Shown: positions 1,689-53,349 of the stretch, in pieces
Position numbering within the stretch: the first letter of the stretch is position 1
Layout of the letters: every line of letters starts with the position of its first letter
Virus record (IMG/VR): IMGVR_UViG_3300025711_000007
Location: 15,785 to 79,784 of that record
Length of the DNA stretch: 64,000 bases
Strand: one strand, 5' to 3'
Source: a virus
Notes under the pieces: generated by a model
The model's database searches: none
Seen by the model: the letters and a program-made list of their open reading frames with translations, nothing else
Told to the model about the DNA's origin: nothing
Translations under genes and position numbers: made by a program

Positions 1689-1856
1689 ATGAAGCCGCAG
1701 CGCTACACGTGCTCTCAGTGCGGGTGCTCTTGGCTCGCTGCCGCCGGCCAGGGCGCTCGGTGCCCCAACGGGTGCGACGTCGTCGCGAAATCGGAGGGCG
1801 AGTTCACGATGAAGACGTTCCAGGGCGGCGACGACCTGAAGAAGGGGCTCCGCTGA
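1689..1856 (+). CDS. Small Zn-ribbon-like protein (55 aa, absent from ORF track)
   Basis: MKPQRYTCSQCGCSWLAAAGQGARCPNGCDVVAKS...; fills the gap between neighbouring genes. Confidence 0.65.
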   Translation: MKPQRYTCSQCGCSWLAAAGQGARCPNGCDVVAKSEGEFTMKTFQGGDDLKKGLR

Positions 1857-1860
1857 AGCC

Positions 1861-2292
1861 GTGCGGGTGTTCGGGACCACGCGGATGATCTGCACGCTGG
1901 ACGCCGACCAGCTGCAGAAGGCGTTCGACCAGGAGGTGACGTTCGACGACACCGACCCGGCCACGGCGGCGCACACCCAGTCGGGTTTCGTCACGCTCGC
2001 CGCCTCCGCGTCGAGCCAGCCGTTCTCGTTCGGCAGCGTCACCGCGGCGTCGACGGTCCTGGTGATCGCGTACGACCCGGTCCAGGTGCAGCTCAACGGC
2101 AACGCCGCGCCGCTCGTCGACGTTACTCCGGTGCCGGCGAGCGCCGCGACCGCGGTCACCTCGGTCTACCAGCGGCAGGACCAGCCGGGGCACCTGAGCC
2201 TGCGCGGCAAGGTCACGAGCCTCCACCTGACCAACCCGAGCAGCACGGAGACGGCTCGCGTGTTCGTCGCCGTCGTGGGCGACGCGGCGTAG
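1861..2292 (+). CDS. Putative virion beta-sandwich protein
   Basis: Thr/Ala/Val-rich beta pattern; resembles 46411..46863. Confidence 0.6.
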   Translation: MRVFGTTRMICTLDADQLQKAFDQEVTFDDTDPATAAHTQSGFVTLAASASSQPFSFGSVTAASTVLVIAYDPVQVQLNGNAAPLVDVTPVPASAATAVTSVYQRQDQPGHLSLRGKVTSLHLTNPSSTETARVFVAVVGDAA

Positions 2293-2295
2293 CGC

Positions 2296-2325
2296 TGGAC
2301 GCCCGCGCGAGGTGACTGGTATGCT
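2296..2325 (+). promoter_or_regulatory. Sigma70-type promoter, probably leaderless
   Basis: TGGACG-N18-TATGCT with extended -10 TG; ATG 6 nt after -10; no SD. Confidence 0.55.
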
Positions 2326-2331
2326 GGCTGC

Positions 2332-3087
2332 ATGTCAGCGGGAACCGTAATCTCCGGGGGTTTCCCCGGGCGTGTCGCGCAGGAAGTCCAGCCCAACCAA
2401 AAGTGCGAGGGCTGTCTCCACTACGACGGCCAGGCGGGGAGGACCGGGGCATGCACGATCGGGTCTCGCCCATGGTTGTGTGGGGACGGCGGTGCCCAGG
2501 ACGTCGGCTACGCGCCGATCGCTGCCGGCGCGGGCAGCTACCTGCCGGACATGAGCAACCACGGCGCGCACGCGCCGGAGGTCGACGGGCAGCACTCGTC
2601 GGACCTGCACGGGGTCGGGTCGACGAGGCCGGTCGTGTTCCGGCAGGTGTCGCTCGGCGAGGAGCACGTCCACCTCGTCAAGAGCATGGTCGAGCAGCAC
2701 GGCAGGATCCAGAAGTCGCAGTGCAGGTTGTGCTCGCTGGCGGGCGCGCGCGGCGCGTCGTCGGCGAACCACGAGTTCCAGACGTGCACCTGTGCCGCTC
2801 TCGACGCCGGCGTGGTCGCCAAGGCGATCGTCCAGCGGATGAGCAACGCGCAGCGCGTCGGTGTTCGGTTGGACGACGTCGCGCAGTGGGTGCGTGACGT
2901 GGCGAAAGCTGGGTTCCGGTTGCCTGTCCCGGACAAGGCACGCAGCTTGGGGTCTCACGTCGTCGACGACCAGACCGATCGCGGGCCGAAGAAGGGACCG
3001 AAGAGGTCGATCTCCGACCAGGTCCGGATCGACGACAGCGGGGGCCACCTCCGCCCGTCGTCGAAGTCGCCCGCGAAAGCACGGTGA
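2332..3087 (+). CDS. Hypothetical Cys-rich head-module protein
   Basis: CEGC...C...C and CRLC motifs; LVKS/IQKS/VAKA motifs; immediately upstream of portal. Confidence 0.7.
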   Translation: MSAGTVISGGFPGRVAQEVQPNQKCEGCLHYDGQAGRTGACTIGSRPWLCGDGGAQDVGYAPIAAGAGSYLPDMSNHGAHAPEVDGQHSSDLHGVGSTRPVVFRQVSLGEEHVHLVKSMVEQHGRIQKSQCRLCSLAGARGASSANHEFQTCTCAALDAGVVAKAIVQRMSNAQRVGVRLDDVAQWVRDVAKAGFRLPVPDKARSLGSHVVDDQTDRGPKKGPKRSISDQVRIDDSGGHLRPSSKSPAKAR

Positions 3088-3090
3088 TCT

Positions 3091-4827
3091 ATGGTCGACG
3101 AGCAGGTGGTCGCCTCGCAGCAGGCTGCGCTGCCGGCTGACATCCAGAAGGCGGTCGCGGCGGCGTTCGAGGAACTCCGCGAGCGGGCGTGGTCGAACGA
3201 GTCTGCGGTGGCGAAGGCCAGCGCCGCGCCGAACGACAACCAGCCGAAGTCGTGGTTCGCCGACCCGTTCGCGCTGCTGGACTCGGTCGGCATGGGGTAC
3301 CGCAACGCGCCGACGTACCTGACGTACGACACCCTGCGCCAGGTGGCCGAGCGCGACACCTACGTCGCGCCGATCATATTGACGCGGATCGACCAGATCA
3401 ACACGTTCGCTAGGCTGCAGCCGAACAAGTATTCCGTCGGGTTCTTGATTCGCCCGCGATTCGGCGACAAGAAGCGCATGTTGTCGCGCAGCGAGAAGGA
3501 GCGGACCGAGCACCTGGCGATGATGGTGCTCAACACGGGGATCGAGTACAACCTCGGCCGCGACGGGCTCAGGCAGTTCATATCGAAGTTCGTGCGCGAC
3601 TCGCTGACCTATGACCAGGGGTGCTTCGAGAGCATCCGAACGCGGTCCGGAGGTGTCCACTCGTTCCACGCGGTGGACAGCGCGACGATCCGGACGACGA
3701 CCCCGAAGCAGATGAAGGGGACACCTCCCCGGATCAACGACCTCAAGAAGGACATCCGCTACGTCCAGGTCATCAACTCGTCGATCACGGCGGAGTTCAC
3801 CATCGACGAGATGGCGTTCTGCGTCCGCAACCCGAGGTCGAACGTCAAGACGTACGGGTACGGGCTGCCCGAGATCGAGACGCTGATAACGACGATCACC
3901 AGCCACCTGTGGGCCGAGGAGTGGAACCGCCGGATGTTCTCGCAGGGGAGCACCGTGAAGGGTTTGCTCAACGTCAAGGGCAACTTGCCTCCCGTCCAGT
4001 TCGAGGCGTTCAAGCGGATGTGGCACTCGCAGGTCGCGGGGGTCCAGAACGCGTGGAAGACACCGATGCTCAACTCGGAGGAGGTGCAGTGGGTCCCGCT
4101 GCAGCTCAGCAACACCGAGATGGGCTACCAGATGTGGATGGACTACCTCTGCAAGATCACCTGCGCGTTGTTCCGGATCGACCCGGCTGAGATTAACTTC
4201 GACCTTCGGGGCGGCGTGGGCGCGGCGCCGGTGTTCATGTCCACGAACGAGGCGCAGCAGAAGGCGAGCAAGGATCGCGGACTGCAGCCGCTGCTCGACT
4301 TCGTCGCGGACGCCATCAATCGTCACATCGTCTGGAAGATCGACCCGCGATTCGAGTTCGCGTTCATCGGCCTCGACGCGAAGACCGAGGAGCAGGCCAT
4401 GCAGCTCCGCCAGCAGCAGGCCCAGTCGCACCTCAAGTTGAACGAGGTGCGCGCGATGGACGACCTGCCGCCTGTCGAGTACGGCGACGTCGTGCTCAAC
4501 CCGGTCTACATCGGGTATCGGACCCAGATGATGATGGCACAGCAGCAAGCGCAGCAGCCGGGGCAGCCAGGTCAGCCCGGCCAAGACGGGCCGCCGCCCC
4601 GGTTCACGCAGCCGCCGGGGGACGAGGAGGAGCACGGCGCTGACCAGATCCGGCAGTTCGCCGAGGACAAGCCGGGCCGGGCGGCGTCTTCCGACGAGGG
4701 GTCCGGTCCGTCTCCGCGCGTGCTGTCGCGCCTGCACATCGACGACTGGGACTCCGTGGTCAGCCACTCGATCAGGAGCGACGACCTCGCGAAGGCCGAG
4801 GTGTACGACGTCATCGACATCGACTAG
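3091..4827 (+). CDS. Portal protein
   Basis: VRDSLTYDQ, FHAVDSATIR, VRNPRS..YGYGLPEIE, FRIDPAEINF, SKDRGLQPLL, LNEVRA motifs as in A511/Twort-type portals; Q/P/G-rich tail. Confidence 0.93.
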   Translation: MVDEQVVASQQAALPADIQKAVAAAFEELRERAWSNESAVAKASAAPNDNQPKSWFADPFALLDSVGMGYRNAPTYLTYDTLRQVAERDTYVAPIILTRIDQINTFARLQPNKYSVGFLIRPRFGDKKRMLSRSEKERTEHLAMMVLNTGIEYNLGRDGLRQFISKFVRDSLTYDQGCFESIRTRSGGVHSFHAVDSATIRTTTPKQMKGTPPRINDLKKDIRYVQVINSSITAEFTIDEMAFCVRNPRSNVKTYGYGLPEIETLITTITSHLWAEEWNRRMFSQGSTVKGLLNVKGNLPPVQFEAFKRMWHSQVAGVQNAWKTPMLNSEEVQWVPLQLSNTEMGYQMWMDYLCKITCALFRIDPAEINFDLRGGVGAAPVFMSTNEAQQKASKDRGLQPLLDFVADAINRHIVWKIDPRFEFAFIGLDAKTEEQAMQLRQQQAQSHLKLNEVRAMDDLPPVEYGDVVLNPVYIGYRTQMMMAQQQAQQPGQPGQPGQDGPPPRFTQPPGDEEEHGADQIRQFAEDKPGRAASSDEGSGPSPRVLSRLHIDDWDSVVSHSIRSDDLAKAEVYDVIDID

Positions 4828-4837
4828 GATCGCCGGG

Positions 4838-6760
4838 GTGAGCGTTTCGACCCCCTACCAGTTCGCGAAGCGCGGCAACTTGTTCATCATTCCGGTCGGG
4901 CCGTCGATCGACGAGGTCCCGTACCCGGCGCAGTCGTTCACCAAGCCGCCGCCGGCGAACTCGCTGTGGGTGAATGGTCGGATCCAGGAGACCGGGCTCC
5001 ACCACGACCACGCGCGCATGTCGACGCACCTCTACCGCGAGGTCAGGGACGACCTCACGCGCTACTCGCCCGTCGAGGTCACGAGATCGGCTTTCTGCCG
5101 CTCCCACCACGCGTACGTCGGGGTCATCGACTCCCGAGGGGTTCCCTACTACTTCGCGCTCGACTCGCGCGGCGTGTCGGTGCGCGCGGCTGACTCGGAA
5201 GAGGCGGCGTGGAAGGCGTTCGACCGGATGTCGGACGGGGAGCACGCGGAAGCCGTGCGCCAGCGCCGCGCGGAGTCCGCCGAAGAGGTGAGGCGAAGCG
5301 GCGGAACAAGCCTCGTGATAACCAAAGGACTTAAGTACGGCAAGAAGACTGAGTGGAAGCACAACGTGCCGCACTCCACATGGTGGAGGAAGCTACCTAA
5401 GACCGAAGCGAGAGATGACCAAGGTGGTGATGACGATCACGACTTGGCCGACGCGCATACAGCGAACCCCAAGAAGGCAAAAACTTCCCAAACGAGCAGG
5501 TGGCGAGCTAAGTATCCGGGAGGGAAAGTAGACAAGATGACGACGAACAAATCAGAGATTCCACTCGTCGTCATCTCGGCCGTAGCGGCGGATGCGGGTG
5601 ATCGCTCTGCTGGAGTCGATCCCGCGACGTACGCTGGCCTGAAGTACGCCGCTCTGATGCGACGGCTTGGAGCTGACCTCTGCGAAGACGAGGATCTGGA
5701 TCCGCCCGTACCTGCCGATGAGCGCTTCTTGGACGTAGCCGTCGTCAAGGCGCTCCCGAAGAAGCCGAAGGTCGACGAGGTCAAGAAGACGCCGGCTCGG
5801 TCAGCGTCGAAGAAGCAAGCAGGCGCCGGCGGCAAGACGCGGTACACGTACCTGAGCGAGAAGAAGTCAGGAGCAGGTAACCAGGTGCCGCTCGTCATCG
5901 CGCACGATGACCACAAGCACGCCGATCCGTTCGAGCTCGCCAACCAGCTCGGGGTGTCAGTGCGGACGCTGCAGGCCGCGGCGCGCCGGTTGGGGCGTTC
6001 CGGGTTCGCCACGTTCATGCGGTCGCGCCTCAAGCGGTTCGCCGCGAAGCATCGTTTGGATCCTGACTACTGGAACACGCTGTACGTGTCGTTGGAGTCG
6101 GGAGATGTCGACGTCAAGAAGAGTGAGAACGTCGACCTGAAGAAGTTCGGAGATGATGCAAAGAAGGTCGCGTCATCCGTACCAGAAAGCCACGTCGGGA
6201 GGTTTCACGGGAGCGACAAGGTGTTCATCCATCACGTGCATCACGAGATGAAGCGCCGTGGGATGTATTCTGGTGGGTTGGACGAGTTCAAGAACCATCT
6301 AGTAGAAGCGCAACATAAGAGACATGTTAACTTGTCTCGAGCTGACCTAGTCGGCGCGATGGATCCGAAGCACGTGTCGCAATCTGAGACTCATGCTAAC
6401 GGAGCTAGCTTCCACTTCGTTAATGCTGGGCACAACCCGCACGCAGCTAAAGAACTAGATCACGCGCACGCGCCGCAGAGTGCTGGACACGCTGCGACAG
6501 ATAAAATGAAGACGACGCGAGCGAAGCCGCATAAGAGCATCCATCATGAAGTGGCAGGTGTGTTGTCGCAAGAAGCACGCGATGCAACTAAGCACGCGAC
6601 TAAAATAAATACTAAAGAAGCACATCTCGCGGCAATGACTGCACACCACCAGGCCGGAGCACAGCACCAGAAGGCATCCGGTGACGTGAACAACAAGACA
6701 GCGCTTAAGCACTTCGACCAATCGGTGTCTCACCTCAAGGCGTCGAAAGCGGCGAACTGA
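4838..6760 (+). CDS. Large modular head-associated protein (HTH-like segment, His-rich C-terminal module)
   Basis: 640-aa ORF after portal; ELANQLGVSVRTLQ HTH-like; mosaic GC content. Confidence 0.75.
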   Translation: MSVSTPYQFAKRGNLFIIPVGPSIDEVPYPAQSFTKPPPANSLWVNGRIQETGLHHDHARMSTHLYREVRDDLTRYSPVEVTRSAFCRSHHAYVGVIDSRGVPYYFALDSRGVSVRAADSEEAAWKAFDRMSDGEHAEAVRQRRAESAEEVRRSGGTSLVITKGLKYGKKTEWKHNVPHSTWWRKLPKTEARDDQGGDDDHDLADAHTANPKKAKTSQTSRWRAKYPGGKVDKMTTNKSEIPLVVISAVAADAGDRSAGVDPATYAGLKYAALMRRLGADLCEDEDLDPPVPADERFLDVAVVKALPKKPKVDEVKKTPARSASKKQAGAGGKTRYTYLSEKKSGAGNQVPLVIAHDDHKHADPFELANQLGVSVRTLQAAARRLGRSGFATFMRSRLKRFAAKHRLDPDYWNTLYVSLESGDVDVKKSENVDLKKFGDDAKKVASSVPESHVGRFHGSDKVFIHHVHHEMKRRGMYSGGLDEFKNHLVEAQHKRHVNLSRADLVGAMDPKHVSQSETHANGASFHFVNAGHNPHAAKELDHAHAPQSAGHAATDKMKTTRAKPHKSIHHEVAGVLSQEARDATKHATKINTKEAHLAAMTAHHQAGAQHQKASGDVNNKTALKHFDQSVSHLKASKAAN

Positions 6761-6780
6761 CGCCAGCCTGGCTGATGTCC

Positions 6781-6810
6781 TGTACGAAGCAGCCGCGGTG
6801 CTGGTAGGCT
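6781..6810 (+). promoter_or_regulatory. Candidate extended -10 promoter
   Basis: TGG-TAGGCT (6802-6810), ATG at 6819; no SD. Confidence 0.4.
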
Positions 6811-6818
6811 ATGCGTCG

Positions 6819-8528
6819 ATGCCGCGACAAGTCACGAAGGGCTTCCAGCTGGTCACGCTCGACGAGTGCTACCGCGACGTCGTGAAGGCGGACGGCGGAG
6901 CGGGTTCTCCGCGCCAGGTCAGCACTCCCGCTTCGCCGCCGCCGAGCACGTCGGACGTGGCGAGCCGCCCGAAGAAGTTCCCGCGTCGGCTGAAGCCGAC
7001 CGTGCGGATGAAGCCGATCAGCGACGCGGAGGCCATGGCTCACATCGCGAGCGGCACCTACAACCCGAACAAGCAGAAGTCGCTGCGCTGGCTCGTCGCG
7101 CTCAAGGCCCTCGCGACCGGGTACTCGAAGACGTCCGGGGGCGGGGCGCTCAAGGCGGCGAACCGTCGGAGCCGGGATCGGCCGAGCCGCCGGAGCTGGC
7201 GCACGGCTCCGTACCTCGGCCCCGACGGTCGGTACGGGAAGATGAGCGGCAAGGACCGCCGGCGGTCCCTGCGCCGAGCGATGGAGGCGATGTCGTCCCC
7301 CATCGGGTCGGCGAAGCCGCCGAGCGTGTACCTGCCGGGAGTCCACAACCCGAAGTCTCCGGTGCGTTCCGCGTCGGGGATCAAGAAGCCGAAGAAGCTG
7401 GCGGTCGCGAAGCCAGGCAGCTCAGGTAACAGCATGGGGAAGGCCGGCGAGACCGCCGCGGTGGGTCGCGGGAGTCGAGGCGGCGCTGTTGGGGCGATCA
7501 CCGGCGCCGCCGTGGGTCGGACCCTCAACGACGCGCGCCATGGCAACTCTCCTGGACGCGACGTGACGCGGTTCGGGATAACAACCGTGGCGTCTAAGCC
7601 ATCGAACATCTCAGCGAGCGAGCGCGAACGGATAAGCGCCAAACGTGCGGCGCGGATGGCAAAACAGACAGCCGAGAAGTCCAGCAATCTGGAGAGCAGC
7701 ATGGCGAAAGCGGAGCACAGCTTCGGTAGAGGGGACCTCGTCGTCCACAACGCGAGCGCGGACCCGAAGGCTCACGGGACCATCGGCGCCGTCGGTCCTC
7801 GCTCCACGGGCACACACATCCATCTCCGGACCGCGGGGTCTCCGCCTCGGATGGTCCACCACAGCGAGGTCCGCGCCGCGACCGCGGACGACATCAAGCA
7901 TCACCAGAGCACGGTGCACAAGCTCCACGGCCTCGGCTTCACCGACCAGGCGACCGCGAAAGGAATTTCCATGTCGACGACGAATTTCAACGACCTGTTC
8001 AAGTCGGAACTCGGTACGCCGGAAGACGAGGTCCTGACCGACTGCCCGCACTGCGAGGCGCCGATCACCAAGGGTGACCTCGAGAAGGCGCACAAAGGCA
8101 AGGGCAAGACGACGCACCAGACCGGACCGAAGCACGGGAAGTCCAGCGCGCACGTCCGGGACCACAATCCGGAGGGCGGGACGATGCGGGGCGGCGACGG
8201 GCGTGGCGTCCACACGTCGAGCCGAGGCGTCCCCGGCGCGAAGAAGACCGACGAGGTCCGCATGGTCGGCCAGGGGCGGCGCGTGTTGAAGGCGGACGAC
8301 GTGTCCGGAGAAGATGACCTGGATGACCGGACGAGCAAGGCCGAGGTCCCGCCGACCAAGGATGTCAACAAGTCCGTCATCACGATCCGAGGCACCGAGT
8401 ACGTGCAGTACGTCGACGACGGGTCGGATGGTCGGATCGCCAAGGCTATCGCCGAGGGAGCCATCGGCGGGACCTCCCCGACTCAACCGCTCGACCTGAA
8501 CAACGACCTCTCGCGGCTCCTGATCTGA
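6819..8528 (+). CDS. Basic low-complexity head-associated protein
   Basis: K/R/S/G/H-rich, CPHC motif, about a dozen x-x-K-[SAG] motifs; start could be 6798. Confidence 0.75.
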   Translation: MPRQVTKGFQLVTLDECYRDVVKADGGAGSPRQVSTPASPPPSTSDVASRPKKFPRRLKPTVRMKPISDAEAMAHIASGTYNPNKQKSLRWLVALKALATGYSKTSGGGALKAANRRSRDRPSRRSWRTAPYLGPDGRYGKMSGKDRRRSLRRAMEAMSSPIGSAKPPSVYLPGVHNPKSPVRSASGIKKPKKLAVAKPGSSGNSMGKAGETAAVGRGSRGGAVGAITGAAVGRTLNDARHGNSPGRDVTRFGITTVASKPSNISASERERISAKRAARMAKQTAEKSSNLESSMAKAEHSFGRGDLVVHNASADPKAHGTIGAVGPRSTGTHIHLRTAGSPPRMVHHSEVRAATADDIKHHQSTVHKLHGLGFTDQATAKGISMSTTNFNDLFKSELGTPEDEVLTDCPHCEAPITKGDLEKAHKGKGKTTHQTGPKHGKSSAHVRDHNPEGGTMRGGDGRGVHTSSRGVPGAKKTDEVRMVGQGRRVLKADDVSGEDDLDDRTSKAEVPPTKDVNKSVITIRGTEYVQYVDDGSDGRIAKAIAEGAIGGTSPTQPLDLNNDLSRLLI

Positions 8529-8531
8529 CGC

Positions 8532-9980
8532 GTGCCGTCCGTCAGCCTCGACGCGATGTTCGGTGACGGAGGGGCGGACCTGGGCGGCGACGTCGTCGCC
8601 AAAGCCCAGGTCCGGTTCCGCGTCCGGCCGCCGGCGCACCCGGCGGCGCAGGACGTCGTCGACCGCGTCGTGTCGGCGTACGACGAGCGGCTCGACATGA
8701 TCCTCGACGAGATCGTCGCGGTGATCCGATGTGCGAACTCGGAGCGTCCACCCACACCCGTCCTCGTGGTCGAGGGTGACCGCTCCACCCCGCGGGATCT
8801 CGTGGCGAAGGCCACGCCGCGCGCGCCGTTTCGTCCGGGGTCGCGAGGAGGCAAGTGGTACCGCGACAGCAAGGGCAACGTGCGCTACGGGGAGCCTCCC
8901 GAGGGGCGTTTCATGGGGAACGCCGGGACGGATGCCCCGATGCCGCACCTCGACCACTTCCGGCCTCGTCAGTTCATGGGCACCTTCGGCAGCGACCGGG
9001 AGCTGACCGGGTTCTTGGTCGAGCACGGGAGCAAGCACGGGTTCTCCGACAGCGAGCTCCGGTTCCTCAGCGCGTGGTACGGCACCAGCGACGGGGACGG
9101 CGGCGCCCTCTACGACGCGTTCCTCGAGTGCGCCGGCTTGACGCGAGAGGAGGCGGCGAACGACGTCACTAACCTCCGCTTCGGCAGCAAGCAGCTCACG
9201 TACGAGGAGGCGGTGTTCGAGTTCTTCGCGGCGCAGGGTGCGCTGTTCATGGGCGAGGAGCCAACCTCCCCGGACCAGGTGAAGGAGTGGCACGCCGTGT
9301 TGAACGACGAGATCAAGCCGCTGCTCGACGACGTGTTCGTCAAGTACGAAGGGATGAAGGATGACGAGTCCCTGCAGGAGCACTTCGCGGGCGAGTCCGG
9401 CCGGCAGCGTCGCCGGTTCTTCGACCACGCGCGTCGCTGCGCAGGTGACGTCGACGGGGTCTCCGACTCCGTCGTTGGTGACTGGGATCCGACCCGGGTG
9501 ACGGACACGGTCTTGATGGGTATGCAGGCTCTCGGCCTGATCGCCCGCCGCGCCAGGGCGGAGCACCACGCGTACGTCCACGGGCGCCCTCACCTCCGCG
9601 ACGCGGTGGTCGTCGACGGCAGGTTGATCGCCAACGGGTCTGACAGCCCGCTTCTCGAGGGCGGCGGCAAGCTGGCCGAGCTGTCGTCCTCGCAGCTCAT
9701 GCTGCTCTACGTGGCAGCCGAGCTGCACCGCAGGTGGGACGCGCACGCGCGGTCGTTCTCGCCGGAGAAGCAGGCGGACGTCGGCGCCGGCGAGCTCGGC
9801 GAGGCGGTGTTATCCGCGCTCGCGGGGAAGACTCCGCGGTGGGCCGAGGTGTCGAGCGTGATCCGCGGGCGCCTCGCGGAGCTGGTCGACCTCGTGGTGT
9901 CGCGGCTCAACGCCGTCAACTCCCGCGAGGGTCTGCCCACCAAGCACGGGCCGGCGAAGCGGCGGCGAGGGTCGCGGTGA
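8532..9980 (+). CDS. Hypothetical head-associated protein
   Basis: Two N-terminal VAKA motifs followed by PGSRGGKWYRDSKGNVRYG and a helical domain. Confidence 0.75.
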   Translation: MPSVSLDAMFGDGGADLGGDVVAKAQVRFRVRPPAHPAAQDVVDRVVSAYDERLDMILDEIVAVIRCANSERPPTPVLVVEGDRSTPRDLVAKATPRAPFRPGSRGGKWYRDSKGNVRYGEPPEGRFMGNAGTDAPMPHLDHFRPRQFMGTFGSDRELTGFLVEHGSKHGFSDSELRFLSAWYGTSDGDGGALYDAFLECAGLTREEAANDVTNLRFGSKQLTYEEAVFEFFAAQGALFMGEEPTSPDQVKEWHAVLNDEIKPLLDDVFVKYEGMKDDESLQEHFAGESGRQRRRFFDHARRCAGDVDGVSDSVVGDWDPTRVTDTVLMGMQALGLIARRARAEHHAYVHGRPHLRDAVVVDGRLIANGSDSPLLEGGGKLAELSSSQLMLLYVAAELHRRWDAHARSFSPEKQADVGAGELGEAVLSALAGKTPRWAEVSSVIRGRLAELVDLVVSRLNAVNSREGLPTKHGPAKRRRGSR

Positions 9981-10387
9981 CCGCCGGCCCATTCATCCTC
10001 GAGATCGACCCCGGCGTCGAAGGCGACGTCCCGTCGCTCCACGCGCTGACGCCGGCGTCCGTGCTCGTGGTCCTGGGTCGAGAGGACCTCGAGCAGAAGC
10101 TCGCGGCCTTCGCCGACCCGGTCAGGAACAAGGTCGTGCGCAACGCGCCGAAGGACCGGCGATGGTACGTCGAGAAGATCCTCCCAGCGCTGCGGTTCTA
10201 CTGCGACAAGTACGACGTCGAGCAACCGAGCTGGCTGGTGGGCAACAACCACTGGGAAGGGATGCCGCGGGACGAGCAGGAGCGGCTGTTCGGGCCAGGG
10301 GACCTGCGGTTCCGAGAATTCCGACCCGTGAGCTGCCCGGACATCGCCGTCGTCCGCGACGGCGACGACGAGCAGGAGCCCGCGTAG
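9977..10387 (+). CDS. Hypothetical protein
   Basis: GTGA overlap with upstream stop; globular composition from 9977 onward. Confidence 0.7.
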   Translation: MTAGPFILEIDPGVEGDVPSLHALTPASVLVVLGREDLEQKLAAFADPVRNKVVRNAPKDRRWYVEKILPALRFYCDKYDVEQPSWLVGNNHWEGMPRDEQERLFGPGDLRFREFRPVSCPDIAVVRDGDDEQEPA

Positions 10388-11334
10388 TGGCTCCCCGCAT
10401 TCTGTCGCCGCTGCAGCGCCGGCGCATCCAGCAGGCGATCCGCGACGGCCACCTCGCGTTCCTGGCGGAGGTGTTCGGACCCACCGCGATCGACGCGGAC
10501 GACTACGACCGGCTGCGCGCCGCCGGCAAGATCCGAGGCGAGAGGCTGATGCCGCAGGACGCCGCGCTGGCCGCCCACGCGATCGGGGCGATCGCCGGGC
10601 ACGAGCAGGCGGATGGTCCGTCAGGTGACGGCAGCTTGCTGTCCGCGCCGGACGAGTTCTGGCAACACGTCCGCGACGACCCGCAGGTCATCACGGAGGC
10701 CGAGCGCGAGGCCGTGACGGTGATCCGCGACCGGGTCGCGCAGTACGTGCGCGGGCTCGGCGACGGCCTCGACGCCGCGGTCGGCCACATACTGATCGAC
10801 GTCGACGACGAGGCCCGGAAGGTGCGGTTGGTCCGAGGGGCCGCAGACGAGCGGGCGTCCAAGCAGGTGGTGATCGAGCGGGTCCGGGTGGCGATCAACA
10901 ACCTCCGGCGGGACTGGCTCCGCGTCGCCCACACCGAGCTGCACAACGCGGCCGAGTCGGCGAAGGCGGTCGTGCTGGCGGGTCGCGACCCGGCGGTGTT
11001 CAAGCGCCCGCACCCGGACGCCTGCGCGTTCTGCAAGCTGCTGTACTTGAAGCCCGACGGTTTGACGCCGCGCGTGTTCAGGTTGTCCGCGCTCATCGCG
11101 AACGGCACGAACGTAGGTCGGCGAGCTCGCCGGCCGACGAGGTCGGGCAGGTCCCGCACGGAGTGGAAGCCCGTCCTCGGGGCGGTGCACCCGTTCTGCC
11201 GGTGCTCCATGAGCGTCCTGCCTGGTGGCATGGGCTTCGACGCCCACGGCCAGATGGTGTACGTTGGCGTCAAGAAGTCGGTGTCGGTCGAAGCGATCGA
11301 CAAGGATCTCGTCAACCACACCTGCGAGGAGTGA
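10387..11334 (+). CDS. MuF / SPP1 gp7-like minor head protein
   Basis: RDWLRVAHTELHNA, DACAFC and HPFCRC motifs. Confidence 0.85.
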   Translation: MAPRILSPLQRRRIQQAIRDGHLAFLAEVFGPTAIDADDYDRLRAAGKIRGERLMPQDAALAAHAIGAIAGHEQADGPSGDGSLLSAPDEFWQHVRDDPQVITEAEREAVTVIRDRVAQYVRGLGDGLDAAVGHILIDVDDEARKVRLVRGAADERASKQVVIERVRVAINNLRRDWLRVAHTELHNAAESAKAVVLAGRDPAVFKRPHPDACAFCKLLYLKPDGLTPRVFRLSALIANGTNVGRRARRPTRSGRSRTEWKPVLGAVHPFCRCSMSVLPGGMGFDAHGQMVYVGVKKSVSVEAIDKDLVNHTCEE

Positions 11335-11339
11335 CACAG

Positions 11340-11918
11340 ATGGCGCGCATCACAGGAACCGTATCGCGCAGCGTACCGCTCGACCCCGTCATCGGCCGCC
11401 CGCTGACCCTGTCCGGCACGTTCGACCTCTTCGTGTCGGGGGCCGAGCTGGCGCGCATCACGCCGACGCTCGAGTCGCTCATCGCCTCGGGCATCATGAC
11501 GAGCCACAACAGGTACCAGGAGAGCGACAGCCTCGTGGCCAACGTCACGGCCCCGATCGTCGACGTCGCGGCGAGCGGCACCGCGACGCCGGCCCCGCTC
11601 CAGACCATCTCGATCGCGGTCCCGGACGCCGCCGGCGACAACACGTACACGTACACGTCGGCGAAGAAGATCGAGGTCGTCGACGTCGTCGTCCACAAGA
11701 ACGGGGCCGGCGCCGGCAACACGATCCAGCTACAGGACAACGCCGCCGCCGCGATCTCCGACGCGATCGTCGCCGCCGTCGACAAGGCCGTCACCCGAGC
11801 AGGGACGCTGGACCAGACCAAGAAGGTCATCAACGCGGGCTCAACGTTCAAGCTCCTCGCCCACCGCGCGGCCGGGACGATGGCGTCCGAGGTGTACCTG
11901 GTCGTCATCCTCCGGTGA
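11340..11918 (+). CDS. Putative virion structural/decoration protein
   Basis: GAGG upstream; A/T/V-rich beta pattern; head module. Confidence 0.65.
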   Translation: MARITGTVSRSVPLDPVIGRPLTLSGTFDLFVSGAELARITPTLESLIASGIMTSHNRYQESDSLVANVTAPIVDVAASGTATPAPLQTISIAVPDAAGDNTYTYTSAKKIEVVDVVVHKNGAGAGNTIQLQDNAAAAISDAIVAAVDKAVTRAGTLDQTKKVINAGSTFKLLAHRAAGTMASEVYLVVILR

Positions 11919-11934
11919 GACGGGCGTCCGCCGC

Positions 11935-12795
11935 ATGAGCGAGTTCTCAGACCTCGTAATGCGCGAGAAGCCGCGGAAGCTCGGCAAGGCTCCGGGCGGC
12001 AAGAGCGGGGCTTTGCTCGCGTCGTACGAGGGAGGAGTCAAGGCGATCGTCAAGGTCACCAAGGACAAGCTGCCGAGCGGCCACCGCAAGCAGCGCGGCA
12101 TCCCGGCCGAGGCTCACCCGACGCGGGAGGTCGCGTTCTACAGCGCCGCGCTGATGCTCGGGTACGGAGAGCTCGTGCCGGAGACGGTGCTGACGAGCAA
12201 GGCTGTGCCAGGCGCGACGGCGTCGGCGCAGCTGTTCGTCCCCGCGCACCAGCTCCACGAGGTCGTGCCGGAGCTGAAGGACCTCGACGCGCCCGACTGG
12301 GGGCAGCACCTCGTCGAGGCGTGCGCCAGGGTACCGAAGGTGTTCTGGAAGCGGCTCCTCATCCTCGACATCCTCGGCGGGGTCCGCGACCGTCACGCGA
12401 ACAACATCGGCCTGCGCCTGCGCGTAGTCGACGACCAGCCGGTGTACAGGAACGTCGCTTGGGACAACGCGGTGTCGTTCGGCAAGACGTTTGATCGTTA
12501 CCACAACGTGTTCCACAAGCACTTGTTCCGGAGAGCTGTGGACCTCGGAGAAGAATGGCAATCTGTAGACAAGTTGACCCGCGCTGACCTGCGAGGAGCA
12601 GTCGGCATGTACTTGCAACCAGACGAGCTCGAGCATGCCTACCTGCGCGTGCGGTTCTTCCGCGACTACCCCTACCGATTGCCGTGGCGCGTCTGCAGCA
12701 AGGGCAACGACGACCCGCACGGTTTCCCCGACTACGAGACGTATTTCCGGTCGTGTGTCGGGGGCCCCCGACACACGGCACACGTCGCGGCATGA
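11935..12795 (+). CDS. PI3/PI4-kinase-like (HipA-superfamily) kinase
   Basis: Gly-rich loop, AIVK, REVAFY..A..LG..LVPETV, SAQLFV, LDIL...DRHANN, WDNAVSF. Confidence 0.8.
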   Translation: MSEFSDLVMREKPRKLGKAPGGKSGALLASYEGGVKAIVKVTKDKLPSGHRKQRGIPAEAHPTREVAFYSAALMLGYGELVPETVLTSKAVPGATASAQLFVPAHQLHEVVPELKDLDAPDWGQHLVEACARVPKVFWKRLLILDILGGVRDRHANNIGLRLRVVDDQPVYRNVAWDNAVSFGKTFDRYHNVFHKHLFRRAVDLGEEWQSVDKLTRADLRGAVGMYLQPDELEHAYLRVRFFRDYPYRLPWRVCSKGNDDPHGFPDYETYFRSCVGGPRHTAHVAA

Positions 12796-12828
12796 ACTTC
12801 GTGTATATTCAACCCGTGGTGACCCGAG

Positions 12829-13575
12829 ATGCGTGAGCGCGACCATGTCGACCGCCTCCTGGAGAGCGACGACTTCTGCGTGTGGACTCCCATCGACACC
12901 ACGCTGATAGAGAAGTCAGCCAAGGCGGGCGTCGACGTCGAAGCGACGCGCCCGATCGGCGGGTGGTGCTCGACGGAGAACATCGACAGGCAAGAGGAAG
13001 TGGTCGTTGCCAAGGGGCTCGACTTCTCCGAGTTCGTGCAGTTCGGGTACTTCAACGACAACCACCGGCAAGACACCGCGTCGGTGCTCGGGTACCCGAG
13101 GCTCGCCAAGCTCCACAAGGCGGGGTGGTGGACCGAAGGTAACCTGCTGCCTGGTTACCCGCCGGCGGACCGCGTGTGGGAGCTGGCCAAGGCGCTCGCG
13201 AAGTCGCGGGCCCCCCGCAGCCTCGGGTTCTCCATCGAGGGCAAGGTGCTGGAGAGGGACGGAGGATCGCGCATCGTGAGGGCGAAGGTGCGCAACGTCG
13301 CCATCACCAACGCTCCGGTCAACACCGACTGTACGTGGTCCATCTTGTCAAAAGCGTTCTCCTCGGCGGGCCGGGTGGAGACCGCGGCTCGCAAGGCTAT
13401 GGCAGAAAACCGGACGATGGGGCAGAGTCAGGGGGGCCACAGCGTGAGCAGCATCATCCACCAGCGCAACGTGGTCCTCAGCTTCGACGAGGCGGTCGAC
13501 CGCGTGCGGAGGATCCACCCGCACCTCAGCAAAAGCGCGTGCGCGCGCGTTGTCCGCTTCGCGGCGCGTCGCTAG
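12829..13575 (+). CDS. Prohead protease (HK97-type)
   Basis: STENIDRQEE, GYFNDNH (His), GFSIEG (Ser), NVAITNAPVN. Confidence 0.92.
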   Translation: MRERDHVDRLLESDDFCVWTPIDTTLIEKSAKAGVDVEATRPIGGWCSTENIDRQEEVVVAKGLDFSEFVQFGYFNDNHRQDTASVLGYPRLAKLHKAGWWTEGNLLPGYPPADRVWELAKALAKSRAPRSLGFSIEGKVLERDGGSRIVRAKVRNVAITNAPVNTDCTWSILSKAFSSAGRVETAARKAMAENRTMGQSQGGHSVSSIIHQRNVVLSFDEAVDRVRRIHPHLSKSACARVVRFAARR

Positions 13576-13587
13576 GAGATCCGAACC

Positions 13588-13920
13588 ATGCCTGCCACCA
13601 AGAACACGTTCTCGCCGCGCCCCTGGCAGAGCCAGCAGGACGGCAACGTCCACACGGGCGTCGTGTCCGTCACGGGGTCCGCCGTGGTTGACCTCGGGAT
13701 CGGTCACGGCAACTTCGTCCCCTGCGTCAGCTTGCAGGGTTCGACGGCGGCGATCGCAAACGCGGCGGCCAACGTGACGTGGTCGTACGGGCCGCAGCCG
13801 GGTCAGTTCACGATCTCCACGTGGAAGGCGACCGCCGCCGGCACCACCACGTTGATCGCCGCCACCGCGGCGGTCAGCGTGTCGTTCATCGCGTTCGCCG
13901 ATAGTTCGGCGGGAATTTAG
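13588..13920 (+). CDS. Putative virion structural protein
   Basis: AGGAG SD; small beta-rich protein between protease and scaffold. Confidence 0.65.
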   Translation: MPATKNTFSPRPWQSQQDGNVHTGVVSVTGSAVVDLGIGHGNFVPCVSLQGSTAAIANAAANVTWSYGPQPGQFTISTWKATAAGTTTLIAATAAVSVSFIAFADSSAGI

Positions 13921-13934
13921 AGAAGGAGACGGAT

Positions 13935-14288
13935 ATGGGTAAGAACAACGTCATCCCGAACTTCGCCGACGTGCAATTGGCGAAGGTGAACAGGAACGAG
14001 TCCCTCACCGTGCCAGACACCATCCAGGCGGCGTCTCCCAGCGGGATCTCGTCGGGGTTGTCGCCGGCGACGCTGTTCGACAGCAAGCGCGCCACTGTCG
14101 GCGGCGCCATCTACGCTGCCTACAGCGACGCAGCGGGGCCCGCGAGCGACGACTTCCAGTACAACCTCAACCCCGGCGACGTGGTCGCGGTGAGCAACGC
14201 CGCCTCGGCGCTCGTGACGGTTAACGGGAACCTCGTCTACACGATCGCGAACACCAACGTCGCCGGCGTCCTCCTCTACTACGTGTAG
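13935..14288 (+). CDS. Putative virion structural protein
   Basis: AAGGAG SD; small beta-rich protein. Confidence 0.65.
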   Translation: MGKNNVIPNFADVQLAKVNRNESLTVPDTIQAASPSGISSGLSPATLFDSKRATVGGAIYAAYSDAAGPASDDFQYNLNPGDVVAVSNAASALVTVNGNLVYTIANTNVAGVLLYYV

Positions 14289-14336
14289 AGGACCCGTCCG
14301 ACCGCCGCCTCCTCCATCGCGCGTTAAGGAACTGAC

Positions 14337-15347
14337 ATGGCAAAGACCAAGATCGCTGAGGGCAAGCTCCTCAAGGCCATCGCCGAGCTCGAGGCGGTCA
14401 CGAAGGGTGACCCGCTGGAGGAGGCGGACCCCGAAGGCGGGTTGTCCACCGAGGGTGAGCCGCTCTCCGACGGGGCTCCTCGCGGGCGCGGCGACGCGAC
14501 CAAGAAGTCGCGCCGGGCGAGCGCGAGTTCCCCGTTCGGGTCCAGGTCGTCGAGCTCGGCGTCTTCGGACGCGAGCTCGGACGATGGCGACGACGCCGAC
14601 GCGATGTCGCCCCAGAAGCCCATCCCGAAGAAGGGAAAGAAGGTCAGCAAGGCCGCCCCGCCGCCGGCCGAGAGCAGCGAGTCGGACAGCGACGACGACT
14701 CCAGCGCCGGGTCCAGCGACTCCGACGATTCCGACGATGCGGACAAGTCGTTTCGCGACGCGGCCGAGGGCGACGAGGTGATGTCCAAGGGGCTCGTCGT
14801 CAACGAGTTCCTGGAGGCGATGGTCGACCAGATCAGCCTGGCGCTGTTCAACGTCCAGAAGTCGATGGCGAAGTCGCTCAAGGCGATGGAGCAGCGTCTC
14901 CAGTCCCACATCGACGACCGCGTCGCCAAGAGCGCGGCGGGTCAGGGCGACTTCAATGCCCGCCTCGCGAAGGCGGTCGCGGCGATCGGCAACACCGTGC
15001 AGGGCGAGCTGCTCGGCATGGCGGACATGGTCAAGTCGATGGCCAACCAGCCGGTGTCCGGCCCGCGTGGCAAGGCGGTGCTGAGCAAGGGAGAGGTCAA
15101 CGCGCCGCCGTGGAGCGGGCCGTCGGCAGTCAACGCCGACCAGCGGATGGCGAGCGGGTCGGGCGGGGACTACGTCGCGGAGCTGAGCGAGCTGTCCCCC
15201 GAGGCGATCGGGGACTGGCTGTTCAAGAAGTCGGCGAGCCAGGCCGTGGACCCGCGGGTCATCATGGCCTGGGAAGCGGATCGCTACAACGTCGAGGTGT
15301 TGCCTGTGCAGATCCGCAAGGCCATCGCCAACGACCTCATCAAGTAA
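14337..15347 (+). CDS. Capsid scaffold-like protein
   Basis: Directly before capsid gene; acidic/Ser-rich disorder plus coiled coil; dense x-x-K-[SAG] motifs. Confidence 0.75.
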   Translation: MAKTKIAEGKLLKAIAELEAVTKGDPLEEADPEGGLSTEGEPLSDGAPRGRGDATKKSRRASASSPFGSRSSSSASSDASSDDGDDADAMSPQKPIPKKGKKVSKAAPPPAESSESDSDDDSSAGSSDSDDSDDADKSFRDAAEGDEVMSKGLVVNEFLEAMVDQISLALFNVQKSMAKSLKAMEQRLQSHIDDRVAKSAAGQGDFNARLAKAVAAIGNTVQGELLGMADMVKSMANQPVSGPRGKAVLSKGEVNAPPWSGPSAVNADQRMASGSGGDYVAELSELSPEAIGDWLFKKSASQAVDPRVIMAWEADRYNVEVLPVQIRKAIANDLIK

Positions 15348-15367
15348 GTAGAAGGGAGGCGCCCGAA

Positions 15368-16768
15368 ATGATCTCGATGAAGGACTACGAGGGTTACCAC
15401 GGCTTCGGGCAGCTCGCCCAAGTCGAGGTTGACGAGCTGAGCAAGGCGCTCAGCTCTGGTTACCAGAATCCGCCCGTCTCCGGCTCCAACGCGCTGCGCG
15501 TCGAGTCGCTGGAGCAGACGCTGCGGATCCTGACGTTCACGCAGGCGCACGTCCAGTTCTGGCGGGACATCCCGAAGCTGCCCGCCTTCTCGACGGTCGA
15601 GGAGTACAACGTCCAGACGTCGTACGGCTCGGAGGGTGGCATGTTCACCCGCGCCGGCGAGCTGCCGCAGGTCCAGGACGCGTCGTACGAGCGCCGCACG
15701 GCGCTCGTGAAGTACGTGACCACGCAGCGCGAGGTCGACCACCCGACGACGCTCGTCCGGCCCGCCCACGGCAACGTGGTCGCGCAGGAGACCCAGAACG
15801 GCGGCGTCTGGATCCTGGAGCGCGTCGAGCGCGCCCTGTACACGGGCCGCAGCGACGTCATCACCGAGGCGTGGGACGGTCTCGACCAGCAGATCCGCAG
15901 CGACCCGAGCGCGGCGAACGTGGCGATCATCGACCTCCGCGGCGGCATCTTGACGGAGGACAACGTCGAGGACGCCACCAACCGCGTCATCGAGAACTAC
16001 GGCGTGCCGACCGACCTCTACGCCGCGCCGAAGGCGCTGTCGTCGATGGTCAAGCAGTTCTACCCGCGCGAGCGGTTCAACATGCCCGCGCCGGTCGACG
16101 GCGTCGTCGGCATGTCGGTCAACCGGATCCGCACGCAGGCGGGCCTGATCAACCTGAAGGGCAACATCTTCCTCCGCTCGGGGAAGAACAACTCGGTGAA
16201 GAACGCGCCCGCCGCGGCCAACTCGGTGCGGGCCCCGGTGGTGCCGAGCGCCTCGGCCGCGAACACCGCCGGCCCGATCGCCGCGTCGCTGTTCGGGGCC
16301 GGAGACGTCGGCACGTGGCGCTACCGCGTCACCGCGGTCAACCGCTTCGGCGAGTCCGCCGCCAGCACCGTGACGACCGCGGCGATCGCCGCCGCGCTCG
16401 ACGAGATCACGGTGACGATCACCAACAACGCCGACAGCAGCGACCCGACGACCGGGTACAACATCTACCGCTGCCCGACGGTGGGCGGCGGGGTGGGCAC
16501 CGAGCAGTACCTGACCCAGGTGCCGCGCGTCGCCGGCGCGGCGACGACGGCGTTCGTCGACGCGAACCGCTTCCTGCCGAACACGAGCCGCGCCTACCTC
16601 AAGCAGATGAACCTGCAGGCGATCTCGTTCCGCCAGCTGGCGCCGATGATGAAGATCCCGCTGGCGACCATCGCGCTCAGCATCCGGTGGGCGATGCTCC
16701 TGTACGGGATGCCGATCGTCTACGCGACGCGCAAGTTTACGATCTTCGACAACGTCGGCGACGAGTAG
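15368..16768 (+). CDS. Major capsid protein (A511 Cps-like) with Ig/FN3-like insertion
   Basis: GGGAGG SD; LSKALSSGY...ALRVESLE, STVEEY, PTDLY, YRVTAVNRFGES, QLAPMMKIPLA...LLYG. Confidence 0.93.
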   Translation: MISMKDYEGYHGFGQLAQVEVDELSKALSSGYQNPPVSGSNALRVESLEQTLRILTFTQAHVQFWRDIPKLPAFSTVEEYNVQTSYGSEGGMFTRAGELPQVQDASYERRTALVKYVTTQREVDHPTTLVRPAHGNVVAQETQNGGVWILERVERALYTGRSDVITEAWDGLDQQIRSDPSAANVAIIDLRGGILTEDNVEDATNRVIENYGVPTDLYAAPKALSSMVKQFYPRERFNMPAPVDGVVGMSVNRIRTQAGLINLKGNIFLRSGKNNSVKNAPAAANSVRAPVVPSASAANTAGPIAASLFGAGDVGTWRYRVTAVNRFGESAASTVTTAAIAAALDEITVTITNNADSSDPTTGYNIYRCPTVGGGVGTEQYLTQVPRVAGAATTAFVDANRFLPNTSRAYLKQMNLQAISFRQLAPMMKIPLATIALSIRWAMLLYGMPIVYATRKFTIFDNVGDE

Positions 16769-52181: not shown

Positions 52182-52186
52182 CGACG

Positions 52187-53296: not shown

Positions 53297-53320
53297 CGGT
53301 CGCGGTAGGTGAGCGTTTCT

Positions 53321-53349
53321 GTTGACAGTGTCATCGCATAAGCTACCAT
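53321..53349 (+). promoter_or_regulatory. Sigma70-type promoter with palindromic operator
   Basis: TTGACA-N16-TACCAT; GTTGACagtGTCATC. Confidence 0.65.

Follow-up and report, generated by a model that had tools for sequence, protein, structure and literature searches.

The locus raises the question of whether a short lysine motif that recurs in the head-module proteins of an uncultivated phage marks the cut sites of its prohead protease, and whether such cutting extends beyond the capsid to accessory proteins carried in the head. Sequence gives little help in recognizing the head-packaged proteins that enter the host along with the DNA, and many of these counter host defences. A sequence-only reading had proposed that the unknown ORFs around the portal gene encode precursors that are packaged into the prohead and cut into small cargo peptides or domains. 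The window analysed here (64,000 nucleotides) is part of a 79.8-kb genome (67% GC) of a phage with a contractile tail.

Organization of the head module

Every gene of the head module lies on the plus strand. The portal protein (3091–4827; 578 aa) matches PF04860 and phrog_12 and has approximately 40% identity to SPO1 gp3.1. The prohead serine protease (12829–13575; 248 aa) matches phrog_1028 (E = 8.6e-48), and a tblastn search retrieved 759 phage records, mainly Herelleviridae, at up to 50% identity; identity to Herelleviridae proteases is 32–50%. The major capsid protein (MCP; 15368–16768; 466 aa) matches phrog_752 (E = 8e-89) and Gp6.1 of PDB 9VEL (E = 7e-84), and is 35–39% identical to SPO1-type capsid proteins. 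The scaffolding protein (14337–15347; 336 aa, pI 4.7), encoded between the protease and the MCP, has a weak PHROG scaffold match, and two small ORFs (13588–14288) separate its gene from that of the protease. The portal, protease and MCP are distant relatives of their counterparts in SPO1, phage K and A511 (Herelleviridae).

Three ORFs precede the portal gene: orf1689 (1689–1856; 55 aa, four Cys residues), orf1861 (1861–2292; 143 aa) and, immediately upstream of it, orf2332 (2332–3087; 251 aa, Cys-rich in its N-terminal part). Portal and protease genes are adjacent, in that order, in ISP and LMTA-34, whereas in the present phage seven accessory genes spanning 8 kb separate them: orf4838 (4838–6760; 640 aa, Lys/His-rich, GC3 0.73), orf6819 (6819–8528; 569 aa, basic, pI 10.2), orf8532 (8532–9980; 482 aa), orf9977 (9977–10387), a MuF-like/VG15-like gene (10387–11334), orf11340 (11340–11918) and a PI3/4-kinase-like gene (11935–12795). 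No Pfam or PHROG match was found for orf1689, orf1861, orf2332, orf4838, orf6819 or orf8532, and no enzyme domain is recognisable in the window versions of orf4838, orf6819 and orf8532. The gene at 10387–11334 had been read as MuF, an identity that is weak: PF04233 is matched by 1 of 18 orthologues (E = 0.0037) and PF25310 (VG15) by 4 of 18, while the window copy has no Pfam match. Invariant positions are C213, C216, H268, C271 and C273. With the protease, MuF-like and kinase-like alignments as profiles, no real match was obtained among PDB sequences.

Enrichment of a lysine motif in head proteins

We counted [LIVMF]-x-K-[SAG] against an expectation from 2000 shuffles of each protein. The 16 head-module proteins contain 48 copies versus 15.6 expected (z = 8.4), and the remainder of the window contains 29 versus 31, with 16 versus 14.4 in the neck and tail genes (17–45 kb) and 13 versus 16.7 in the replication genes. 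Five copies (7.1 expected) fall in the initial 15.8 kb of the genome. The impression gained by eye, that the motif is scarcer in tail genes, holds after correction for composition. A narrower form, [LIVMF][SA]K[SAG], occurs 21 times in the head module (3.1 expected) and twice elsewhere in the window (5.4 expected).

The original motif was chosen post hoc by its reader; an a priori version agrees with it. This version, [LIVMF]xK[AS][LIVMF], was built solely from two invariant sites (MCP K26 and protease K175) and was found 6 times in the scaffold (0.32 expected), 9 times in other head ORFs (1.9 expected) and 4 times in the rest of the window (5.7 expected). The class-level pattern was used in place of a 10-position weight matrix trained on the same two sites, which overfitted those families and detected no further sites.

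Such an excess might be an artefact of composition or secondary structure, for example of Lys-, Ala- and Ser-rich amphipathic helices. The enriched proteins are indeed helical and rich in these residues, and in the scaffold and protease of related phages the shifted and reversed control motifs are raised 1.4–2.4-fold; part of the excess in those proteins is therefore local composition. In the window, however, controls that replaced the P1 Lys by Arg, Glu, Asp or Gln, reversed the motif or shifted its register were all flat, none showing an equal excess. Block shuffles of 12, 20 or 30 residues kept the head expectation at 15–16 (15.6 for 12-residue blocks), and across related loci the signal holds from 39% to 68% GC. 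On the flat window controls and the block shuffles we reject a composition artefact, to which we attach almost no probability. The counts support a motif with Lys and register specificity, which behaves like a protease recognition site.

A site lies near a terminus in 10 of 15 head proteins and in 10 of 38 other proteins of the window. Leader-like N-termini ending at the consensus are present in the MCP, portal, orf8532, orf6819, orf1861, scaffold and protease. An all-against-all BLAST among the head proteins, which sought a shared targeting sequence, gave no significant match.

Capsid protein, scaffold and protease

All motif copies listed in the sequence-only reading were located, including DELSKALSSGY at MCP residues 22–32. 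The MCP has a single copy (0.8 expected), and its maturation cut is predicted after K26 (codon 15443–15445; ...VDELSK|ALSSGY). The motif at the K26|A27 column is kept in all 31 orthologues examined; the aligned sites are K24|S25 in Staphylococcus phage ISP and K23|S24 in LMTA-34. The deposited Kayvirus capsid protein chains 9ROW, 9ROX and 9ROZ begin at S25, i.e., after K24. Cps of Listeria phage A511 is reportedly matured by a cut at a Lys-Ser bond in the equivalent N-terminal position; the equivalence drawn to the A511 type is supported by the alignment of K26 with K23-S24 of the A511-like MCP.

The scaffold contains 12 sites versus 2.1 expected, comprising the ten copies already listed (K13, K23, K105, K151, K175, K179, K198, K212, K233 and K251) plus K298 and K328; cleavage is predicted to yield pieces of 4–82 residues. 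Its counterparts in 30 related loci hold 324 copies versus 50 expected. Alternatively, the motif would be a docking signal that loads proteins into the prohead by binding the protease, the scaffold or the inside of the capsid, and most of its copies would stay uncut. Cargo is known to be loaded through N-terminal targeting sequences in T4 and in P1 DarB (PMC9024508), and the motif copies cluster at termini. However, the sole position with external support, the MCP N-terminus, has the motif at a real cut, as given by the start of the deposited mature chain, and the 10–14 copies that scaffolds carry exceed what docking needs. We consider a docking role improbable and favour cleavage.

The protease itself contains 7 sites versus 0.76 expected, namely the previously listed K29 and K175 and five more. 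The motif at K175 is present in 31 of 31 orthologues, and a self-cut is predicted after this residue (codon 13351–13353), in a flexible linker that leads to a small helical domain at the C-terminus. In the AF2 model (pLDDT 70), this linker (residues 163–206, pLDDT <50) includes K175. Several other copies sit within the folded domain and may never be cut. H79 (FNDNH) and S135 (GFSIEGK) are invariant among 16 sequences at 38–77% identity, and we infer that they are the catalytic residues. A Foldseek search with the model placed T4 gp21 (5JBL) at the top (probability 0.98–0.99, with a weak E of 5e-3), followed by the HCMV, PRV, EBV, KSHV and VZV proteases (assemblins), also with weak E-values. 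Profile match and predicted model together identify the protein as a prohead serine protease with an assemblin-like fold. Approximately 40% of the motif signal resides in the scaffold and protease, which is ordinary for such proteins.

Portal and accessory proteins

The portal protein has three copies (1.4 expected) at K20, K42 and K568, close to both ends as had been listed; K42 is kept in 7 of 13 orthologues and K568 in 6 of 13. The clearest accessory case is orf8532, whose two sites (1.0 expected), K24 (8601–8603) and K93 (8808–8810), are kept in 6 of 8 and 7 of 8 orthologues, respectively, and both lie in low-confidence, predicted flexible segments of the AF2 model. A leader between the two predicted cuts is followed by a GSRGGKWYRD..G..RYG hairpin and a helical domain. 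Because both conserved sites are N-terminal, they suggest leader removal and not fragmentation. The protein corresponds to the N-terminal module of SNF2 polyvalent proteins of 1,460–1,710 aa in relatives. Structure searches with orf8532 yielded no usable match in ESM Atlas and noise in Foldseek against BFVD (TM at most 0.13).

The highest count among the accessory proteins was found in orf6819, with 10 sites versus 2.5 expected (z of approximately 5 even under block shuffles). Its relatives are similarly site-dense (observed/expected 8/1.1, 10/2.3, 11/2.2, 17/4.1 and 20/6.8), and we regard it as a candidate internal or core protein that would be cut in pieces, including the basic fragments 24–208 and 209–297. 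Upstream of the portal, orf2332 has 4 sites versus 0.74 (P of approximately 0.006), orf1689 has 2 versus 0.22 (K34 and K52) and orf1861 has 1 versus 0.15 (K20). Despite occupying the same gene slot, orf4838 is not enriched (3 versus 3.0); its residues 433–534 match the C-termini of the giant SNF2 proteins of relatives. The products of orf9977, the MuF-like gene (K297 of 315, as listed), orf11340 (K149 of 192) and the kinase-like gene (K18 of 286) have at most one site each and are individually at expectation. The statement that the motif occurs throughout the unknown ORFs is therefore true of some only: it is dense in orf6819, orf2332 and orf1689, while orf4838 is at expectation and orf8532 has just a two-site N-terminal leader.

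Related uncultivated loci

We see the motif signal again in 33 loci of related uncultivated phages (GC 39–68%). Observed/expected counts are 215/45 in the protease, 372/63 in the protease-to-MCP genes, 682/403 in the upstream genes and 157/188 in the downstream genes; these loci share ancestry, and pooled P values overstate their independence. The ORFs upstream of the portal in relatives contain 105 copies versus 45.5 expected. A site within the first 35 residues is present in 50 of 101 upstream proteins of relatives (13 expected) versus 3 of 104 neck and tail proteins (9 expected). The large upstream proteins are enriched 2.2-fold in the N-terminal 120 residues and 2.7-fold in the C-terminal 150, versus 1.03-fold in the middle. 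Many of the 101 upstream proteins are unrelated in sequence. The relatives' gene slot around the portal and between portal and protease encodes SNF2, Helicase_C, ADPrib_exo_Tox (ADP-ribosyltransferase), RelA_SpoT, NUDIX, InPase, DUF5661, Mom and 2H (phosphoesterase) domains. These enzymes are typical of the polyvalent class, for which packaging is predicted (PMC5512222).

Since the motif clusters at protein termini in relatives, leader trimming appears to fit better than chopping into peptides. The proposal of processed cargo is supported in part, by its Lys motif and by the enrichment of accessory ORFs; cutting into small cargo peptides is rejected as a general description for the large proteins, whose interiors are at motif expectation.

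Possibly only the canonical substrates (capsid protein, scaffold and protease) are cut, and the accessory excess reflects shared low-complexity helices, scaffold-like descent or chance and does not mark packaged cargo. These three proteins carry 20 of the 48 sites, and five of the accessory proteins (orf4838, orf9977, MuF-like, orf11340 and kinase-like) are each at expectation. Nevertheless, the other head ORFs still contain 28 copies versus 11.3 (z = 5.3) and exceed expectation in the a priori motif as well, the leader sites of orf8532 are conserved, and terminal clustering extends over the upstream proteins of relatives, many of which differ entirely in sequence. We consider a restriction to canonical substrates unlikely, and prefer processing that includes accessory proteins.

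Comparison with known phage systems

The Herelleviridae (SPO1 gp6.1; phage K/812/ISP; A511/P100-type) are the homologous comparison for portal, protease and MCP, and their capsid protein has its N-terminal Lys site in the matching alignment column. V-x-K-S is likewise frequent in the ISP protease and scaffold (7 sites versus 1.3 expected in the scaffold). Their genomes of 130–160 kb are of low GC, in contrast to 80 kb and 67% GC here, and DNA and protein searches of a collection of cultured phages found no homologue of orf6819, orf8532 or the kinase-like gene. In phiKZ and SPN3US, a single prohead protease reportedly cuts many head and ejection proteins at one consensus. This consensus is (S/A/G)-x-E. 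The P1 residue differs here, the genome is much smaller, and the cuts are predicted from sequence.

In T4, gp21 recognizes one consensus, (L/I)-x-E, across the capsid protein, scaffold/core, protease and packaged proteins (PMC12991175, PMC9024508). The T4 internal proteins IPI–III and Alt carry short N-terminal leaders ending at the consensus, as predicted here, and the Foldseek match of the predicted model indicates the same protease fold. However, P1 is Glu in T4 and Lys here, and the cargo has no sequence homology to the T4 internal proteins or Alt. The resemblance to T4 internal proteins is a functional analogy only, because orf1689, orf1861, orf2332, orf4838, orf6819 and orf8532 have no Pfam or PHROG match.

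In P1, the gene for DarB adjoins those for portal (Prt) and protease (Pro), and the first 30 residues of DarB direct its loading (PMC9024508). Relatives of the present phage similarly have genes for conflict enzymes, among them SNF2-type giants, next to those for portal and protease. Phage polyvalent proteins are a class predicted to be packaged, with processing proposed to occur via their own peptidase domains and not the prohead protease (Iyer et al. 2017; PMC5512222). Unlike these proteins and DarB, orf4838, orf6819 and orf8532 of the window lack an enzyme domain, orf8532 being an N-terminal module only. Literature on the phage 812 neck, Pa193 and D3 contained nothing on Lys specificity.

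Proposed processing pathway and implications

From the observed motif statistics, conservation, homology and fold, we propose that the Lys motif is probably the cut site of the head protease in the capsid protein, the scaffold, the protease itself and several accessory head proteins. The protease would cut after Lys in hydrophobic-x-K|(S/A/G), often with a hydrophobic residue next. Inside the prohead, it would take 26 residues off the capsid protein, shred the scaffold at approximately 12 sites, and sever its own C-terminal anchoring domain at K175 before digesting itself. The portal and accessory proteins encoded around its gene, most clearly orf8532, would lose short N- or C-terminal leaders, and the site-dense basic proteins orf6819, orf2332 and orf1689, probably core or internal proteins, would be fragmented. 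Besides these cleavages, we infer that the accessory proteins are packaged and delivered into the host.

More tentatively, at somewhat below an even chance, a hydrophobic-x-K|(S/A/G) leader, N-terminal and sometimes C-terminal, may serve across this large Herelleviridae-related uncultivated clade as a general prohead ticket for accessory proteins and giant anti-defence enzymes, to be removed by the prohead protease.

The principle is already established in other phages, and the present finding is therefore a refinement of known biology and not a new kind of system. If true, it would extend the principle of T4, phiKZ and P1 to an SPO1-type protease with a different specificity, and the analysis names concrete candidate substrates and sites. 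If the Lys motif is a real cut-and-load signal, a simple rule would predict the packaged head-module products of a broad group of uncultivated phages. Should the leader code hold, a genome sequence could suffice to predict the set of packaged and injected proteins, and the leader might be transferable to foreign proteins for loading into the head.

Enrichment of a lysine motif in the head module

In the contig (79,784 bp, 67% GC; the window covers bases 15785–79784), nearly all genes lie on the plus strand. Genes were called under GC3 guidance and annotated by Pfam and PHROG scans. A ParB-like gene (392–1360) precedes the head module (1689–16768), which is followed by neck, contractile tail, and baseplate genes at approximately 17–45 kb (sheath at 25223–26956) and replication genes at 47–64 kb. 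The portal (3091–4827), prohead protease (12829–13575), and major capsid protein (MCP, 15368–16768) are remote kin of their counterparts in SPO1, phage K, and A511-type phages, with identities of approximately 40%, 32–50% (protease core), and 35–39%, respectively. The capsid protein also matches Gp6.1 of PDB 9VEL (E 7e-84).

The sequence-only reading had noticed the motif [LIVMF]-x-K-[SAG] in the head proteins, and each string that it quoted is present in the protein named. We counted the motif in 62 called proteins, with the expectation for each derived from 2000 shuffles of the same protein. The 16 head-module proteins contain 48 motifs against 15.6 expected (z 8.4, per-protein shuffles), while the 44 proteins encoded after the capsid gene contain 29 (31.1 expected), the neck and tail genes 16 (14.4), the replication genes 13 (16.7), and the first 15.8 kb of the genome 5 (7.1). 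After composition correction, the head is thus threefold above expectation and the tail at expectation; the scarcity noted by eye in tail genes holds for raw density, which is low there mostly because of low Lys content. Controls on the head set are flat: 20 observed versus 22 expected with Arg at P1, 15 versus 15 with Glu, 29 versus 21 with Asp, 7 versus 12 with Gln, 23 versus 15.5 for the reversed motif, and 9–18 versus approximately 15.6 for three shifted registers. The narrower form [LIVMF][SA]K[SAG] occurs 21 times in the head (3.1 expected) and twice elsewhere (5.4 expected). Shuffling in blocks of 12, 20, or 30 residues still gives a head expectation of 15–16; therefore, local composition is not the cause of the signal.

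The scaffold (14337–15347) has 12 sites against 2.1 expected and the protease 7 against 0.76; together they hold approximately 40% of the head sites, a share that is ordinary biology. Without these two and the MCP (1 versus 0.8, at K26), the head ORFs retain 28 motifs versus 11.3 expected (z 5.3), so that the genes around the portal are themselves marked, as had been proposed. The motif is not spread throughout all of these ORFs (named by start base): orf6819 (10 versus 2.5), orf2332 (4 versus 0.74), and orf1689 (2 versus 0.22) are dense, but orf4838 is at expectation (3 versus 3.0) and orf8532 (2 versus 1.0, at K24 and K93) carries it only as a leader. The portal has three sites (K20, K42, and K568; 1.4 expected), and the other head genes have 0 or 1 each. 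Two small conserved ORFs between the protease and scaffold (13588–14288; 110 and 117 aa) are motif-free, rich in Ala, Thr, and Gly, and almost devoid of Lys.

Conservation in related loci and the capsid maturation site

With the protease as the query, we found 80 related IMG/VR loci and analyzed the 33 that span 14 kb or more (GC 39–68%). In orthologue alignments, all 31 sequences have the motif at MCP K26 and at protease K175. These two columns alone yield an a priori motif independent of the earlier definition, [LIVMF]-x-K-[AS] followed by an LFM-type hydrophobic residue. This motif occurs 6 times in the window's scaffold (0.32 expected), 9 times in its other head ORFs (1.9 expected, P 1.5e-4), and 4 times in the rest of the window (5.7 expected). 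In the relatives, the counts are 163 versus 58.5 in upstream genes, 162 versus 10 between the protease and MCP genes, and 22 versus 32 in downstream genes. The four-residue motif reaches 8–14 sites (1.1–2.8 expected) in the scaffold region of each of the 33 loci, whose scaffold sequences are barely alignable and yet keep this density. Pooled observed and expected counts are 215 and 45 for the protease, 682 and 403 upstream, and 157 and 188 downstream, although pooled P values overstate independence because the loci share kinship.

The proposed tie to capsid maturation is borne out by the alignment of MCP K26-A27 with K23-S24 of the A511-like Listeria phage LMTA-34 and K24-S25 of Staphylococcus phage ISP. 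Loessner and Scherer reportedly placed the A511 cleavage at a Lys-Ser bond in 1995. The 439-residue capsid chain in PDB 9ROW, 9ROX, and 9ROZ is identical to ISP residues 25–463 and therefore starts exactly after K24, which indirectly indicates that the mature Kayvirus capsid protein starts there. Since the ISP scaffold (ORF10; 7 V-x-K-S sites versus 1.3 expected) and protease (6 versus 1.5) are also rich in such sites, the Lys motif seems to characterize the entire protease family. In the phage 812 mass-spectrometry dataset PXD071586, which was prepared with trypsin, cuts of this kind are indistinguishable from those of trypsin itself.

H79 and S135 of the protease are invariant in a 16-sequence alignment. 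Its AF2 model is confident for a catalytic domain (residues 16–160) and for a small helical domain at the C-terminus (210–248); the linker between them (163–206), in which K175 lies, is of low confidence. In Foldseek, T4 gp21 (5JBL) was the top match, followed by herpesvirus assemblins. Predicted cleavage at K175 would set this helical domain free. The domain may serve to tether the protease within the prohead; HK97 gp4 is an analogue for such a role.

Predicted leaders and fragmented proteins

The position of the sites bears on whether the marked proteins would be cut into small cargo peptides, as first suggested, or would lose terminal leaders. In 36 large upstream proteins of the relatives, the motif is at 2.2 times expectation in the first 120 residues and 2.7 times in the last 150, but at 1.03 times in the middle. 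Among 101 upstream proteins that are 250 residues or longer, 50 carry a site in their first 35 residues (13.0 ± 3.4 expected), compared with only 3 of 104 neck and tail proteins (9 expected); this low N-terminal count and the low downstream count of the five-residue motif may reflect avoidance of protease sites outside the head. Many such leaders, with endings such as D-L-F-K/A (the slash marks the predicted cut), precede proteins that share no mutual sequence similarity. In the window, a site lies at most 45 residues from an end in 10 of 15 head proteins versus 10 of 38 others (Fisher P 0.011), and the head proteins have 18 terminal sites against 4.2 expected. In orf8532, K24 and K93 are conserved in 6–7 of 8 orthologues and lie in low-confidence model segments on either side of a helix (37–67).

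This clustering fits leader removal, as with T4 targeting sequences, better than the chopping of enzymes into peptides. P1 DarB has an N-terminal packaging signal (PMC9024508), and the predicted terminal leaders fit the same scheme. Directly after the second predicted cut, residues 93–133 of orf8532 (8808–8930) contain a conserved GSRGGKWYRD..G..RYG β-hairpin motif. Unrelated large proteins in four related loci (L027, L029, L049, and L071) have K/A..HKY.KRTG directly after the leader, and some match DUF5661. In orf8532 and in the large proteins of the relatives, cleavage may uncover a conserved module at the N-terminus.

Fragmentation is the predicted outcome for a site-dense class, namely the scaffold, orf6819 and its relatives, the ORFs upstream of the portal, and the small ORFs just before the protease. 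The predicted orf6819 fragments include very basic ones (24–208, pI 11.7), which, speculatively, recall internal proteins of other phages.

Accessory genes between the portal and protease

The portal gene is followed immediately by that of the protease in ISP and LMTA-34. In the window, seven genes (8 kb, 4838–12795) separate the two, with another three on the upstream side of the portal. Adjoining portal and protease genes are also the arrangement in classical Herelleviridae. The slot is conserved among the uncultivated relatives, where its proteins have 800–2,700 residues and carry SNF2 helicase, ADP-ribosyltransferase, RelA/SpoT, NUDIX, InPase, DUF5661, Mom, Hint, and 2H/Acb1-like domains. 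"Polyvalent proteins" of this kind were predicted by Iyer et al. to be packaged and injected (PMC5512222). The window's own accessory proteins have no recognizable enzyme domain in Pfam and PHROG scans. The protein orf8532 is the counterpart of the module at the N-terminus of the SNF2 giants, and residues 433–534 of orf4838 match the C-termini of those in two loci (L012 and L013); judged from sequence, the window's accessory genes resemble modules of a polyvalent protein that have become separated. No homologue of orf6819, orf8532, or the kinase-like gene was found in any cultured phage of the collection searched.

Other features of these genes were also observed. The Lys- and His-rich orf4838 (4838–6760) has a GC3 of 0.73, compared with approximately 0.9 in its neighbors. 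The conserved 286-aa kinase-like protein (11935–12795) has invariant D152-R153-H154..N157 and D177-N178, resembling a PI3/4-kinase-like catalytic-loop pattern, and gave no match in Pfam, PHROG, or PDB-profile searches. The MuF-like protein (10387–11334) has invariant C213, C216, H268, C271, and C273, probably a zinc site; its identity as MuF is weak, as 4 of 18 orthologues match PF25310 (VG15) and only one matches Phage_Mu_F. Bacillus phage SP-10 has a MuF-like homologue upstream of the portal. In Bacillus phage YungSlug, a feature annotated as "PARP polymerase" (51946–53346) lies beside or overlaps the portal gene, a hint that cultured Herelleviridae, too, have effector domains adjacent to the portal.

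Taken as a whole, the earlier interpretation is partly supported, with both cleavage and packaging predicted from sequence. For T4 and phiKZ/SPN3US, and in part for P1, it is established that a single prohead-protease consensus is common to the capsid, scaffold, protease, and packaged proteins. The present system differs from these in the predicted Lys specificity of an SPO1-type protease, a candidate cargo slot inserted between the portal and protease genes, and predicted terminal leaders on polyvalent-type proteins.
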